Assembly (NCBI GenBank): GCA_039802265.1
Contig: JBDRWI010000028.1
Location: 1-28,284, forward strand
Direction: 5' to 3'
Source of the DNA: a candidate division WOR-3 bacterium
GTDB taxonomy: Bacteria > Hydrothermota > Tepidihabitantia > SM23-42 > JAOAFX01
Length of the DNA stretch: 28,284 bases
Positions within the stretch are counted from its first letter, which is position 1; every line of letters starts with the position of its first letter. Below, in pieces: positions 1 to 5,701 of this stretch. The notes beneath the pieces are model-generated. The model was not told where the DNA came from, searched no databases, and saw only the letters and a list, made by a program, of their open reading frames with translations. A program made the translations under genes and the position numbers.

Positions 1-127
1 TAAAATAATAATAAAGCGATTAAAGCGGGGGATAAAACGATGGAGGTAATAAAAAAATGAGCGCTTCGCAAATGACGGAAAATGCGGTGTTTCGGAATTT
101 CCGAACACCCACTTCTTGATAAAGGAG

Positions 128-1354
128 TCAACTATGAAGAATTGGCGCGGGAATTGGAGGTAATTCAGGATGACGAATATCAGAGAAGGTAATTTTTCGG
201 GTAAGCAAGGTATAGAGGACACGCAGGAGTTTATTTGCTGTAGCAATTATGGCTTTTTTGGCTTTCATTCCTTGTTTCTTCTTTCGTTCATAGTAGATAC
301 GAAACATCTGGGTATAGAGGATAGTGCCGATGGTCATTTGGTAGATAGTTCGTCTGAGATGTCGGTTGCCCCGCTTAGAGATTCTGTATTGACCTTTGAA
401 TTTTCCGGATTCCTGAATGATTGGGTCTATTCCGCTGGCAGCGATGATTTTCTTGGGGCTATTCATAGTAGCAATAGTGGGAATCTCGGTGATGAAGTTA
501 GCTGCTGTAAGTTCACCAATTCCTGGGATAGATGTGATGATTTCCATTGCTTCAGAGTAGTTGGCCTTGGCTTTGTCAATGAACTTTGGTTTGAGCCGAG
601 CCAATTCTTCTTGCAGGTGGAAGAGTCTTTTGATGCAGCTTCTAAGGATTTCTTCCTGGTTTGGGTCATCGATGCTGATAGTGTTATGGATGATTTCCAT
701 GATTTCGCTGGTGGTAAATGGTATTTTTCGGCCCCTTCTGTGGGTGATTTTTCTGATTATGCTGGTGATTTCTGCTTCGGTCAATTCTTTAGCTCGACGT
801 GTGGAGGGGACTTCAAGGAGGAATTCAAGGATTGTCTGGGTGAGGATGTTGTATCTGTGTGCCAGTTCATTGAAGATATTGAAGGTGATTTGTTTGATTC
901 TGGTTTTGAGTTTAGCGATTTCTTGGGCGAGGATTTCGCATTCGCGTGCCAGGAGTTTTGTGGTATCGTCTTGGGTGTGGTTTATGATTTTAGTGGGGTT
1001 TTTGAGGAGGTAGAGGGCGATTATTTTTGCCGAGATTTTGTCGGTTTTGGTTTTTCTAAGGGTGTTGCTTTGGAGGAATTTTTTGGTAATCAAGGGGTTG
1101 ATGAGGGTAATGTTATAGGTTTTGGTCTTCAGGAAGTTGAGGATGTTGATGTGGTAGTTGCCTGTGGATTCGATGCCGATAGCGATTTTTTGGGGATTGC
1201 CGATGGTTTGGAGGAGGGTGAGGATTTCATTAAATCCTTCTTTGGTTTGTGGGAATCTTTTTTGATTGATGATGTTTTCCTCTGTATCAATAATACAGAG
1301 GTCCAGGGTATTAAGGGATGCATCTATGCCGATGAAGTATTTAAAGTTAGGCAT
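128..1354 (-). CDS. IS110-family transposase/recombinase (408 aa)
   Basis: Motifs FIGID, GIESTGNYH, KTD, SIPGIG, GIDP..QESG, ISKRGNRHLR and ANKLLR. SD GAAAGGAG lies 8 nt upstream. Confidence 0.95.
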   Translation of the reverse strand: MPNFKYFIGIDASLNTLDLCIIDTEENIINQKRFPQTKEGFNEILTLLQTIGNPQKIAIGIESTGNYHINILNFLKTKTYNITLINPLITKKFLQSNTLRKTKTDKISAKIIALYLLKNPTKIINHTQDDTTKLLARECEILAQEIAKLKTRIKQITFNIFNELAHRYNILTQTILEFLLEVPSTRRAKELTEAEITSIIRKITHRRGRKIPFTTSEIMEIIHNTISIDDPNQEEILRSCIKRLFHLQEELARLKPKFIDKAKANYSEAMEIITSIPGIGELTAANFITEIPTIATMNSPKKIIAASGIDPIIQESGKFKGQYRISKRGNRHLRRTIYQMTIGTILYTQMFRIYYERKKKQGMKAKKAIIATANKLLRVLYTLLTRKITFSDIRHPELPPIPAPILHS

Positions 1355-1591
1355 GGGTTAAGCTCCTTTCCCGCTGTTAGCGGATTAAAGATTGGAAACA
1401 GGATGCTTTCTCTTCCATCCTCCATGTTGATACGGGATCTATGTCCCAACCAACCTATAGGGAATGGAGAAAGCGGGGGACAGACTCCTTTACGGGCTCG
1501 TAGCCCCGGAGTTATGTCGTCCCCCTGTTTCCAATTCTTTGGTTCCATTGATTCATTAATCATAACTAAATTATATCCGAATTCAACATAG
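170..1591 (+). CDS. Antisense ORF spanning the IS (473 aa), possibly analogous to IS900 hed
   Basis: Stop-free across both the transposase, in codon register, and the non-coding region. GGAGG at 156-160 precedes the ATG, and the TAG overlaps the SD of the gene at 1600. No recognisable protein family. Confidence 0.35.
   Translation: MTNIREGNFSGKQGIEDTQEFICCSNYGFFGFHSLFLLSFIVDTKHLGIEDSADGHLVDSSSEMSVAPLRDSVLTFEFSGFLNDWVYSAGSDDFLGAIHSSNSGNLGDEVSCCKFTNSWDRCDDFHCFRVVGLGFVNELWFEPSQFFLQVEESFDAASKDFFLVWVIDADSVMDDFHDFAGGKWYFSAPSVGDFSDYAGDFCFGQFFSSTCGGDFKEEFKDCLGEDVVSVCQFIEDIEGDLFDSGFEFSDFLGEDFAFACQEFCGIVLGVVYDFSGVFEEVEGDYFCRDFVGFGFSKGVALEEFFGNQGVDEGNVIGFGLQEVEDVDVVVACGFDADSDFLGIADGLEEGEDFIKSFFGLWESFLIDDVFLCINNTEVQGIKGCIYADEVFKVRHGLSSFPAVSGLKIGNRMLSLPSSMLIRDLCPNQPIGNGESGGQTPLRARSPGVMSSPCFQFFGSIDSLIITKLYPNST
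1360..1563 (-). ncRNA. IS110 bridge RNA with target-binding and donor-binding loops
   Basis: Closing stem 1387-1402/1524-1540. Target loop: stem 1475-1481/1519-1525, guides 1508-1516 (identical to 1594-1602) and 1485-1492 (reverse complement of 120-127). Donor loop: stem 1411-1420/1461-1470, guide 1424-1430 (reverse complement of 1583-1589). RNA ends are approximate. Confidence 0.8.
1570..1575 (-). promoter_or_regulatory. -10 box (TATAAT) of the circle-junction promoter for the bridge RNA and transposase
   Basis: Joining the IS ends at AGGAG gives TTGACT (131-126)-N17-TATAAT. Confidence 0.7.
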
Positions 1592-1599
1592 GAGGAGTT

Positions 1600-3804
1600 A
1601 TGGTTAAGTTTTTTCTTTCCCTGGTTCTTTTATGCGCCATTGGCTGGGCACAGAGCGGGCAGGTGATTCTCCCCAAACCCGCCAATACGGATAACAAAAT
1701 CTGCTGTGGCCGGCCGGTAAAGCCCTCAGAGGTAAGACCGGAAAAGATTGAAACCGAGCCAGGACCTCAACAGAAGTTGAGCGAGGGCTGGGCACTTGTG
1801 ATAATAAAGGCAGAAGACCCCCTGACAATGAATGCCATATTGGATAGATTACAGAAGAATGGAGTTAATACCAATGGTCTGCGCTGGCCACCCCATTGTG
1901 CCTTAATCAGGGCAACAAAAGAGGATGAGACAAAGATTCTCCAAACCGAAGGGATTGAAGCAATATATTTTGAACCGGTGAAGCCCGAAGACATACCATA
2001 TAAAGACGATCTGACCAATACCGCAATAAATTACTGGAATAGACTGCTCAGCGGTGAATTTGATGAGAGCATCCCGGTTCCCGGTCTTGAGCCACCCAAG
2101 AATGATATGCTCATTCCACCTCAGAATTACCGGTATCAATCAGATTATATGTTTGGTACTGTTGCCACCTGCATCTTCTTTCCGGAAAGCAATGGCTCAA
2201 TTGACCCGAATCTGGAGAACTGGACAACCACACTCCGGGATAATGTTATCAATGAAGTCTCCGCTGGACTTCAACGCTGGGTTACCTGGGCAAGCAATGA
2301 GGTCCCTTCAATCAGTCTGAGTTTTTCGCTTTATTACTATGACTACACCCAACTCCCAACTGGCTATGAACCGATATCCCGGCCACAATCTGACGAAGGT
2401 CTATGGATAAACGATTGTATGAATGCCATCGGTGCGCCCGCCGGCAGTTATTTTAGCCGGGTAAGCTGGTTTAATGATTGGTTGCGCAGCAATTACGGAA
2501 CCGATTGGGCACATTCAATCTTTGTTGCCAATTCATTAAATGATCCCGACGGTTGCTTTGCAGATGGTTACTCTGCCTATGCTTATCTTGGTGGGCCATT
2601 TCTGGTGATGACCTATGACAATGATGGCTATGGTATCGGTAATATGGACTGGGTGTGTGCCCATGAGACCGGTCATAACTTCTATGCCTTTGATGAATAT
2701 TCTTCTTCGGGTTGTACCTGCACTCAATCCCATAATGGCTACGAGAATCAAAACTGTGCCAATAATTGTGCTACAAATAATACCTGTGTAATGAGAAACG
2801 CCCTTGAGACACCGGTAGAGTATTATTCAAAGGGCCATATCGGTTGGGATCCGGGAGTCTATACATTAAGTGATGACGTAACCCAGTCACTGGGTTATCC
2901 TTATCCCAAGGCGCGGAAATATCAATACAATCAATCAGTGGTCTACTGGGCAGCAACGGGTGTCCGTCCTAATTCAGGTTCCGACTGGGATATAAGGCTA
3001 TATTCGGACACCGGATTTGGCACTCAACTGGCATATTCGGCCTACGGGGGCACGGCTGTTGACTTTGTTGTCGCAGACTACAATCATTCGCCAACCGGTG
3101 TGGATGCAATCTATGTCTCACGCTATTCAGGGACGAGCGGGGCAACCGTTGAATATGAAGATGGGACCGAGTCGTTCTCTTATCCAAACTCTTATTCAAC
3201 AACCTGGGATGCAGGTGATGTGGTTGAAATCTTTGACTATTATGTTGGAAGTGCACCGATCAATCTTAACTTCAAACTTGATATCACCTCGGGTAGTGCT
3301 GATCTGGGATTTGGTCTTTTCAAATCTAATGGTTCTTCTTATTATGCCGGCAGGTCAGGTATGGTGGCCTATGCGGATGCCAATGGTGCCGGTGGTGATG
3401 AGACATTCGACTATAATGTCACGGCAAATGACTGGTATGGTATTATTGTCTGGGCAAATAATACCGCGTCAGCCAGTTATACCCTGATTATAGGTCAGGT
3501 GGAAATTGCAGAACAGAGTGAAATGGGAATTGAACGAGAACCCAAGCTCGTTGTCAAGCCAAATCCCTGCAAGGAAAATCCACTTATCAGATGGAATTTA
3601 ATTTCGTCCAATAAAGTTCCAAGTTTAAGGATATTTGATACTACAGGGAAGTTGATAAAGGAATTTAAGATTAGAGAAAGTAGAGCAAAATCGGTATGGG
3701 ACCTTAAAGATAAATATGGGAAAAGGGTTTCCGATGGTATCTACTTCGTCTGTCTTGAAGATGGTGGGGAGAGAACAATTGAGAAGTTGATAGTTGTGAA
3801 ATAA
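1600..3804 (+). CDS. Secreted zinc metalloprotease with beta-sandwich domains and a T9SS-type C-terminal sorting domain
   Basis: Signal peptide, HETGHNFYAFDEY zinc motif and a downstream CVM Met-turn. C-terminal domain reads KPNP...IFDTTGKLIK...WDLKD...GIYFV...KLIVVK. Confidence 0.8.
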   Translation: MVKFFLSLVLLCAIGWAQSGQVILPKPANTDNKICCGRPVKPSEVRPEKIETEPGPQQKLSEGWALVIIKAEDPLTMNAILDRLQKNGVNTNGLRWPPHCALIRATKEDETKILQTEGIEAIYFEPVKPEDIPYKDDLTNTAINYWNRLLSGEFDESIPVPGLEPPKNDMLIPPQNYRYQSDYMFGTVATCIFFPESNGSIDPNLENWTTTLRDNVINEVSAGLQRWVTWASNEVPSISLSFSLYYYDYTQLPTGYEPISRPQSDEGLWINDCMNAIGAPAGSYFSRVSWFNDWLRSNYGTDWAHSIFVANSLNDPDGCFADGYSAYAYLGGPFLVMTYDNDGYGIGNMDWVCAHETGHNFYAFDEYSSSGCTCTQSHNGYENQNCANNCATNNTCVMRNALETPVEYYSKGHIGWDPGVYTLSDDVTQSLGYPYPKARKYQYNQSVVYWAATGVRPNSGSDWDIRLYSDTGFGTQLAYSAYGGTAVDFVVADYNHSPTGVDAIYVSRYSGTSGATVEYEDGTESFSYPNSYSTTWDAGDVVEIFDYYVGSAPINLNFKLDITSGSADLGFGLFKSNGSSYYAGRSGMVAYADANGAGGDETFDYNVTANDWYGIIVWANNTASASYTLIIGQVEIAEQSEMGIEREPKLVVKPNPCKENPLIRWNLISSNKVPSLRIFDTTGKLIKEFKIRESRAKSVWDLKDKYGKRVSDGIYFVCLEDGGERTIEKLIVVK

Positions 3805-3912: not shown

Positions 3913-3996
3913 GCCGGGGTGGCGGAACTGGGAGACGCACCAGGTTCAGGACCTGGCGCTGGCAACAGCATAGGGGTTCAAATCCCCTCTCCGGCA
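3913..3996 (+). tRNA. tRNA-Leu(CAG)
   Basis: Acceptor GCCGGGG/CTCCGGC, anticodon arm CCAGG-TTCAGGA-CCTGG, long variable arm, T loop TTCAAAT. CCA is not encoded. Confidence 0.95.
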
Positions 3997-4038: not shown

Positions 4039-5439
4039 ATGATAAAAAAAATTGAGCAAATCGTCTTTATCGGCTTGGTAATTTATACAATATTCTATTT
4101 TGTTGAATCTTTTATTATCATTACTTATCCATACCAGATTTCATATCCTGAAGGGTTTATTCTTAATCAGTCCTTCATTATCAGTCAGGGGCTTCCAATT
4201 TACAAAGATATCTCTGAATATCCGTATCTGGTTGTTAACTATCCACCGATCTATCCCTTTTTGTGTGCCATCTTTGTAAAACTATTCGGTATATCTTTTA
4301 TCTGGGGCCGACTCATCACCTTCATCTCCTCAATCCTTGTTGGTTTTTTAATTTATAAATTCCTGCAACGCGAGACATCAAAAACTATTGCAATAATTTC
4401 TGCTTTACTCTTTATTTCATCTTCATACATTTATAAAAATAATCCACTCTGCCGAGTTGATATGTTGGGTCTTTTCTTCAGTCTCTGCGGGCTATATCTC
4501 TTTTTAAAGAGCAACAATATAGGGCTGCCTATTCTGTTTTTCCTTTTTGGTTTATATACCAAACCGACCTTTATTTCCGCACCGCTGGCAGTTGCGGTCT
4601 TTCTTTTTTTGAACAACAAAAAGAGGGCTCTTTCGTTCACTGCGCTTATGGTCTTTTTTTATTTAATCATCTTTTTCTTTCTCAATCATCTGACCCACGG
4701 TGAGTTCTACAAACATAATTTCGTGTATAACCTCAACACATTTATCTTCAAGCAGGCATTGAAACATTACATCTGGATGCTCCAGAATCACGCAATACTA
4801 ATTCTCTTTTCTTTGCTGTATGTATTTTATTCATCTTCGGGCAAAAAGCCACCAGTTTTGGTGATCTATTTTATCATCTCCAGTATCGTTGCCCTCTCCG
4901 TTGGCAAAATCGGGGCAAATATGAATTATTTCTTTGAGATGATTGCCTTATCCTGTATACTTACAGGCCTTGGCCTGGGAAAATTACGGTCTGAAATTAA
5001 CGAAAGGGCATACAATTATCTAAGTCTGGGTGCGCTCTCTTTCCAGTTAATTCTCTTTGCACATATGCCCTATCTGACTGAGCCCACCGCGACGAAACTA
5101 TCTCGGAGGGTAGCTGAACAGGTTTCTGAAATTGTAGCAAATACCGATGGTGAAATAATCAGTGAAGATGCAGGATTGTTAATAAAAAACAAAAAAAACA
5201 TTCTATTCCAACCCTTTGAAATTACACAACTTGCCAATCAAAAAATCTGGGACCAGACCCAATTCATCAATGATATAAAAAACAGACGCTTTTCATTGAT
5301 TATCCTTTTTTTCGATGTTGATTGCTGGGTTGATGAGGAGCGACTGACCTCTGAAATGGTTGAGGCAATCCGTGCACATTACTCTGTAAGCAGAAAAATA
5401 GGTGAGTATTATCTATATCAACCGATTCATTACCAATAA
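4039..5439 (+). CDS. Polytopic membrane glycosyltransferase, GT-C fold (ArnT/PMT/GT39-like)
   Basis: Many hydrophobic segments, with YPEG, NYPPIYP, GRLIT, RVDM and TKP motifs. Confidence 0.7.
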   Translation: MIKKIEQIVFIGLVIYTIFYFVESFIIITYPYQISYPEGFILNQSFIISQGLPIYKDISEYPYLVVNYPPIYPFLCAIFVKLFGISFIWGRLITFISSILVGFLIYKFLQRETSKTIAIISALLFISSSYIYKNNPLCRVDMLGLFFSLCGLYLFLKSNNIGLPILFFLFGLYTKPTFISAPLAVAVFLFLNNKKRALSFTALMVFFYLIIFFFLNHLTHGEFYKHNFVYNLNTFIFKQALKHYIWMLQNHAILILFSLLYVFYSSSGKKPPVLVIYFIISSIVALSVGKIGANMNYFFEMIALSCILTGLGLGKLRSEINERAYNYLSLGALSFQLILFAHMPYLTEPTATKLSRRVAEQVSEIVANTDGEIISEDAGLLIKNKKNILFQPFEITQLANQKIWDQTQFINDIKNRRFSLIILFFDVDCWVDEERLTSEMVEAIRAHYSVSRKIGEYYLYQPIHYQ

Positions 5440-5543: not shown

Positions 5544-5615
5544 GCCGACATAGCTCAGGGGTAGAGCAATGGTTTTGTAAACCATAGGTCGGGGGTTCAA
5601 ATCCCTCTGTCGGCT
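5544..5615 (+). tRNA. tRNA-Thr(TGT)
   Basis: Acceptor GCCGACA/TGTCGGC and anticodon arm ATGGT-TTTGTAA-ACCAT. CCA is not encoded. Confidence 0.95.
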
Positions 5616-5618
5616 CTT

Positions 5619-5701
5619 GGGCAGGTACCCAAGCGGACAACGGGGGCAGACTGTAAATCTGCTGGCGCAAGCCTTCGGAGGTTCGAATCCTTCCCTGCCC
5701 A
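5619..5701 (+). tRNA. tRNA-Tyr(GTA)
   Basis: Acceptor GGGCAGG/CCTGCCC, anticodon arm GCAGA-CTGTAAA-TCTGC, long variable arm. CCA is not encoded. Confidence 0.95.

Follow-up and report, generated by a model that had tools for sequence, protein, structure and literature searches.

The window analyzed here is the whole 28,284-nucleotide (nt) contig JBDRWI010000028.1 of a candidate division WOR-3 bacterium (assembly GCA_039802265.1). Near its left end it carries an insertion sequence of the IS110 group, which is probably an RNA-guided element aimed at translation starts; it restores the Shine-Dalgarno sequence at its insertion site and may hand host ribosomes over across its own length. The targeting part of this explanation is based on a bridge RNA predicted in the non-coding end of the element, whose guides covary with the flanking sequences across relatives, and the hand-over part on a stop-free frame that runs antisense to the recombinase gene. 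The element, its ends and its recombinase are located as follows.

126..1594, minus strand: IS110-group element including both CT cores (16 left and 14 right junctions of close relatives, plus the wider clade)
128..1354, minus strand: IS110 recombinase of 408 amino acids (NF033542, 212 bits against a cut-off of 140; PF01548 and PF02371; alignment with IS621)
126..127, minus strand: CT core of the right end (wider-clade junctions and guide alignment)
1593..1594, minus strand: CT core of the left end (wider-clade junctions and guide alignment)

The non-coding end is 240 nt long and lies upstream of the transposase gene and not, as in the IS1111-type layout, downstream of it; the right end overlaps the stop codon of the gene. 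Regardless of the target, the left end of relatives always starts with CT-CCTA and the right end terminates in ATAGTTGA-CT. The recombinase combines PF01548 with PF02371 within the size range of 300–460 amino acids that is the criterion for IS110 proteins. D11, E62, D105 and S316 are found in it, and alignment with IS621 places a serine, S108 (codon at 1030-1032), at the position of the fourth aspartate of the motif. The serine is common to elements L001, L003, L063, L142, P0001, P0002 and P0012; aspartate is retained at this position in 111 of 120 homologues. The element is present in a single copy, with no further copies detected in the assembly by blastn, tblastn or the RNA model, and a search of 2537 plasmid records returned no close match (top match, 32% identity).

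The predicted bridge RNA and its guides

1384..1532, minus strand: predicted bridge RNA, target loop followed by donor loop (fold, covariation, model R1)
1507..1516, minus strand: left target guide, 8 nt of the left target from CAU and then two core positions
1485..1492, minus strand: right target guide UAAAGGAG, core plus 6 nt, reading as a Shine-Dalgarno sequence
1483..1484, minus strand: predicted handshake dinucleotide UC of the target loop, complementary to the donor GA and placed by analogy with IS621
1448..1455, minus strand: left donor guide GGUUGGUU, with three wobble pairs
1418..1431, minus strand: right donor guide, discontiguous (AU at 1431-1430, GGAG at 1423-1420, then handshake GA at 1419-1418)

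An earlier note, made from the sequence of the window alone, had recognized two hairpins with internal loops in the non-coding end and proposed that they form a bridge RNA with matches to both flanks. The fold is upheld by its stability (z score of -4.2, with 0/200 shuffles equally stable) and by covariation. In an alignment of 51 distinct RNAs from 54 loci with both anchors, 96.8% of the cells in the 25 stem pairs tested are paired and 16 of the 25 pairs display two-sided changes, versus 33–63% pairing in slid controls; the consensus structure was derived from the same alignment that scored it. Model R1 scores the window, itself part of the training set, at 128 bits. No Rfam family fits the bridge RNA, and the Rfam search of the window gave only three tRNA genes, at 3913-3996, 5544-5615 and 5619-5701.

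The target guides match as the note had described. CAUAACUCC (1516-1508) is the reverse complement of 1594-1602 at all nine positions and UAAAGGAG (1492-1485) corresponds to 120-127 at all eight. When the non-coding end was shuffled 20,000 times with dinucleotides preserved, both matches occurred jointly once, and the 7-mer UCAACAU alone was matched in 202 shuffles. The note's wobble-compatible sequence also stands, as the left donor guide: GGUUGGUU (1455-1448) has five identities and three wobbles against AGTTGACT (133-126), and relatives have the Watson-Crick letter at two of the three wobble positions. The UCAACAU of the second loop (1430-1424) does equal 1583-1589 in the element end, but as a donor guide it was rejected, being kept in this copy only among six elements with the identical end. 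The right donor side is instead read by the discontiguous guide, in which GGAG is present in 51/51 elements and position 1431 pairs with donor position 14 in 46/51, including a change from A:T to G:C. Handshake dinucleotides fit at 4/4 positions here and, in counts without shuffle control, at 62/88 and 84/102 positions in relatives.

The guides were also compared with the flanks of other copies. On the left, guide and flank are identical at 257 of 398 positions (50 elements), versus 188 ± 8.5 after shuffling, and on the right at 181 of 242 (41 elements), versus 99 ± 9; neither value was reached in 10,000 shuffles. One element on the left and ten on the right were omitted for missing flanks, and bulges were disallowed. 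Together with copies standing in the same register at other translation starts, this covariation supports the proposal of the note that the guides are the basis of ribosome-binding site (RBS) targeting.

Targets of the element and its relatives

Relatives were taken from genomes G005, G010, G012 and G024 (18 of 60 genomes had any match), locus L001 and the best 79 of 564 confirmed metagenome stretches; a scan of the genome contigs with the single protein gave one locus. They fall into three target classes with shared ends and their own matching guides, namely, CAT-N4-C/CT/CCTT (the RBS class), CTTC/CT/GAA or GTA, and CAC/CT/ACA. The majority of the relatives (L060-L133, from metagenomes) aim at the latter two.

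In the close family, CAT is found at -8 or -9 in 17 of 19 junctions, versus 16.2% of comparable genomic sites, and the remaining two junctions are at TTG starts. All 13 genomic sites with at most two mismatches from the guides carry ATG, one of them being the junction of this copy. In G005, CATA is at -8 in eight of nine left junctions and CCTT is present in 10/10 right junctions, with loose matching of the spacer. Because of the latter, the working target is, judging from sequence, the translation start as a class. Across the RBS class, the four spacer positions follow the guide as well (36/72 versus 24 after shuffling; 18/10,000). The loose form of the target motif fits 84 genomic sites. Orientation at the close-family junctions is always antiparallel to the host gene. 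Contigs of runs X1, X4 and X6 carry the element at further translation starts, with the register unchanged. Among the 16 downstream genes scanned are one ftsZ (L040) and two gap genes (L033 in G012 and L036 in G005); the gene behind L003 is etfB.

Several variants were encountered along the way. L144 (G150:C74, ~5000-5320) is a miniature without transposase that has IS-like ends and a bridge RNA whose target loop is collapsed, and it resides at a translation start. L049 (G010:C6) is a partial copy with a target-like sequence in place of the right end, possibly an aberrant recombination product. In run X4, the element also occurs in a form whose target-loop stems (window 1462-1497) are altered, and a separate, related element there has a different right target guide.

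Predicted excision and insertion

1570..1575, minus strand: -10 hexamer TATAAT of the circle-junction promoter (computed join of ends)
131-126, minus strand: -35 sequence TTGACT of the circle-junction promoter, with a 17-nt spacer to TATAAT (computed join)

By analogy with IS621, from which activity is deduced, the excised element would join its ends at the CT core and thereby create a TTGACT-17-TATAAT promoter driving the bridge RNA and the recombinase. When the ends are joined computationally, 37 of 44 elements have a -10 hexamer with at least 5/6 positions at a spacer of 16–18, a result of sequence only; scanning the integrated form for promoters yielded no more than expected by chance (3 versus 3.0). 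The joined ends of a circle were not seen among the 29 of 47 listed pieces of run contigs. In the proposed insertion step, the target loop reads CAT, then four loose bases and C, followed by the core CT and by CCTT(TA); covariation shows that this corresponds, on the host strand, to a Shine-Dalgarno sequence with ATG 5–6 nt behind it. The element inserts antiparallel, inside the Shine-Dalgarno sequence, and its fixed left end, TAGGAG on the host strand, restores the site. The earlier note had likewise proposed that the host Shine-Dalgarno sequence is rebuilt, but through a duplicated AGGAG; there is no target duplication, as the core is CT and CCT is shared by the fixed element end and the RBS-class target.

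The antisense frame

Besides the junction promoter, the earlier note had missed an antisense frame that spans the element in the direction of the host gene.

170..1591, plus strand: antisense frame of 473 codons, resembling hed, the opposite-strand open reading frame (ORF) of IS900; in register with the recombinase and ending at the TAG of the rebuilt site
134..163, plus strand: leader ORF of nine codons, with its ATG from the element end behind the host Shine-Dalgarno sequence (similar leaders in L003, L004 and L059)
156..161, plus strand: internal Shine-Dalgarno-like GGAGGT, 8 nt before the ATG at 170
1589..1597, plus strand: rebuilt Shine-Dalgarno sequence, TAGGAG of the element end plus host bases

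The TAG that closes the frame belongs to the restored site and precedes the host ATG by 8 nt; the TAGGAG end is also present, on the host strand, in relatives with other targets. The frame is the longest antisense run among 1079 long ORFs (median, 75 codons). Of the codons that would interrupt it (TTA, CTA and TCA), the recombinase has one among its 57 leucine and serine codons, where ~16 are expected from genome usage. Only these three are missing, and other A-ending codons are used normally in the same genes (~20%). We surveyed 80 proteins of at least 290 amino acids, excluding the last 25 codons; the class was assigned from guide or flank, and for L105 by hand. Stops are absent from the frame in 13/20 RBS-class elements, 0/47 elements of other classes and 0/13 unclassified ones. 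The frame is open in proteins that are just 35–40% alike and crosses the non-coding end in phase, including the 18-nt longer end of L003; the left-end length is a multiple of three in 12/18 versus 8/33 elements. L142 and L143, which a later search with the RNA model brought up (matches in 5 of 151 genomes), fit in guides, frame and phase. In L143 (G107), the recombinase is cut to 234 amino acids and the antisense frame is still open.

The protein that the frame would encode is not conserved: its identity in distant pairs is 0.22, versus 0.23 in closed-frame controls. It has no Pfam or NCBIfam match, and its Atlas model, with a predicted local distance difference test (pLDDT) score of 0.26 and a best feature score of 0.77, shows no fold. 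As the frame is open in the RBS class while its protein is not conserved, ribosome pass-through suggests itself as the function. Untranslated mRNA invites Rho termination, and a stop codon overlapping a Shine-Dalgarno sequence favors re-initiation; the host genome carries Rho. The leader ORF and the stop-free frame would hand host ribosomes across the 1.5 kb insert, and a frame ending in the restored site would limit Rho-dependent polarity and allow re-initiation. The frame is there and selected for; the balance tips slightly towards pass-through as its role. The host-direction strand is also G-rich and C-poor (409 G, 220 C), with a skew that differs by class (median, 0.12 versus -0.06). Avoidance of Rho loading sites through this skew is only a lead, because skew is absent from L064 and L075, in which the frame is open.

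On a quick, midpoint-rooted tree with long-branch warnings, the RBS class occupies deep branches and one nested clade. Loss of the frame upon retargeting would fit this spread, in a direction that the tree does not prove.

Provenance of the flanks

120..125, plus strand: right-target flank with half of the host Shine-Dalgarno sequence, originating from the C4 locus (allele comparison)
1595..1602, plus strand: left-target flank, which includes the start codon of the host gene and originates from the C12 locus (allele comparison)
1..116, plus strand: multi-copy host repeat outside the element (matches on contigs C4, C47, C8, C21, C31, C6 and C72)
1600..3804, plus strand: host gene of 734 amino acids with a C-terminal secretion sorting domain and a weak M12 peptidase match below the cut-off

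The empty site predicted by the earlier note, a fusion of the two flanks, is not the one that the genome contains. On the left, all 127 bases of 1-127 recur unchanged in C4:78-204, which continues into a different gene of 880 codons. On the right, the 99 bases of 1590-1688 recur unchanged at the end of C12, a contig whose upstream region is its own. The C4 and C12 loci are both empty target sites in the same register. Since the two flanks come from two loci, the perfect 9/9 and 8/8 match is partly an accident of this contig; natural sites match the spacer loosely. We examined contigs of four of the nine listed runs, of which X1 and X2 may be the source. X1 contains both the C4 and the C12 allele; the C4 allele is also found in X2, where the element is joined to the gene at 1600, and the C12 allele also in X6. 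An X6 contig couples the C42 flank with a right flank unlike that of the C42 allele. An empty allele of the gene at 1600 was not found in the 20 genomes of relatives searched. Several Shine-Dalgarno sites are directly preceded by copies of the ~110-base repeat seen at 1-116, and the assembly breaks at this repeat.

The contig is probably an assembly chimera formed through a multi-copy element. A real rearrangement is conceivable because half-match recombination is reported for IS621 in a passage of 10.64898/2026.08.31.748434, but we regard it as unlikely. That the contig records one true insertion into exactly the joined site is highly improbable: the element is contiguous with the gene at 1600 in X2, both halves fit the guides perfectly and the genome is 89% complete, but the joined site is absent from it, an empty allele of each flank exists on a different contig, both alleles recur in the run contigs, and the X6 contig presents a similar mismatch of flanks.

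Weighing the explanations

Several observations count against an active, translation-start-directed element with ribosome hand-over. First is the serine at position 108 in place of the fourth motif aspartate: for IS621, mutating this aspartate is reported to have abolished recombination. The many insertion sites nevertheless suggest that the Ser108 variant is active now or was until lately. The second core position of the left guide is G here and U in most relatives. Relatives share descent, so all P values overstate. Neither the joined empty site nor two alternative registers of it has a match in the genome, and the left junction of the window is absent from the 29 pieces listed of 47, which does not prove absence. 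The insertions before ftsZ and gap stand at the ends of draft-genome contigs and may not be fixed. As for the frame, it is closed in 7/20 RBS-class elements, including the whole branch of L104, L128, L092 and L120, and thus is not required. The tree yields three independent contrasts, with which a sign test cannot reach significance. Finally, L066, L068 and L090 have open frames without an ATG in the element end or a clear internal Shine-Dalgarno sequence, and how ribosomes would enter there is unclear.

Three other accounts of the frame were considered. According to the first, the guide reading is right and the frame serves the element's own control, with host transcription and translation antisense to the RNA and recombinase silencing the integrated copy. 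The consistently antiparallel orientation agrees with this account, an open frame would let the antisense transcript span the whole element, and in IS621 excision needs read-through in the element's own direction. However, silencing leaves unexplained both the in-phase stop at the restored site and the presence of ftsZ and gap behind insertions. We consider it fairly improbable as the purpose of the frame, although it is compatible with ribosome hand-over and would not exclude it.

The second account takes the frame for a true hed gene encoding a functional protein, with RBS targeting serving its expression; the title of Doran 1997 suggests as much for IS900. The Shine-Dalgarno-like site and ATG at 156-172, retained in L003 and L004, would be expected of such a gene, and four-fold sites are slightly more conserved than in control pairs (0.50 versus 0.41, at 70–80% identity). 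However, C-rich third positions can yield the same four-fold signal, and neither the protein identity, which equals that of the closed-frame controls, nor the missing family matches and low pLDDT speak for a functional product, making this account decidedly unlikely. Least probable of the three is that codon bias produces the open frame incidentally and that RBS targeting merely selects an abundant intergenic motif: the few independent contrasts, the RBS-guided relatives with closed frames and the 84 genomic sites of the loose motif are in its favor, but as regards the frame it is largely refuted already by the selective absence of TTA, CTA and TCA (one seen versus ~16 expected), by the phase kept through the non-coding end, including the longer one of L003, and by openness in such dissimilar proteins.

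Setting these accounts beside ribosome hand-over, we lean, if only just, towards a lineage of 'translation-transparent' transposons. Its members would aim at translation starts, use their end as Shine-Dalgarno sequence and stop, and keep an antisense frame across recombinase and RNA. They would sit before essential genes, their frame would decay when the guides are reprogrammed, and the closest relatives would be DEDS rather than DEDD recombinases.

Relation to known IS110 elements

Among the closest known counterparts is IS621 of Escherichia coli (PDB 8wt6), as described in the available passages of PMC11208160, PMC11208158 and PMC13626964. The two elements share the RuvC-like and Tnp domains (E value of 1.4e-22), a left-end RNA with two loops, the CT core in all four guides, the discontiguous right donor guide, the handshake dinucleotides and the junction promoter. 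IS621 aims at repetitive extragenic palindromic (REP) elements, whereas the present element is found at translation starts. Further differences include the target lengths (8 nt on the left, ~4–6 nt on the right), the serine for the fourth aspartate and the antisense frame. ISCro4 (PDB 9t56; E value of 2.3e-22) and the seekRNA element ISEc21 (PMC11187229) are also IS110-type elements in which the transposase follows the non-coding region, and their proteins are distant; the passages of PMC11187229 make no mention of translation-start targeting.

The target type is that of the IS900-like elements. IS900 and IS901 of Mycobacterium avium insert between the Shine-Dalgarno sequence and the start codon, according to a passage of PMC2942039, and part of PMC8141618 gives the IS900 motif as CATG-N6-TCTCCTT and describes the hed ORF on the opposite strand as spanning the element with function unknown. 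Insertion at the Shine-Dalgarno sequence and start codon antiparallel to the host gene and an opposite-strand ORF across the element are thus shared. In the IS900 motif, however, CAT lies 11 nt before CT, versus 8–9 in the present element, and in these sources hed is described without a ribosome-binding site and start of its own, both of which the present frame has. In the literature searched, with subscription journals mostly outside it, no work ties a bridge RNA to translation-start targets, IS900 or hed. The link does not appear in the passages of PMC11208160, PMC11187229, 10.1101/2025.10.25.684509, 10.64898/2026.10.21.760802, 10.1101/2025.05.14.653916 and PMC13604230; the supplementary motif tables of PMC11208160 may list such guides.

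Implications

For annotation, the analysis implies that a 1.5 kb insertion between a Shine-Dalgarno sequence and a start codon need not be a knock-out, and that flanks on single metagenome contigs can be scrambled. A single clade here displays natural reprogramming among three target classes with identical ends, and the element may supply an insertion system that keeps downstream genes expressed. The transposon may use the most abundant functional motif of the genome as a safe harbor. The analysis also ties the bridge RNA mechanism to an old observation on IS900-type elements, which land between the Shine-Dalgarno sequence and the start codon and have an opposite-strand ORF that has lacked an explanation. 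If true, the translation-transparent lineage would show how IS900-type targeting works and what hed is for.

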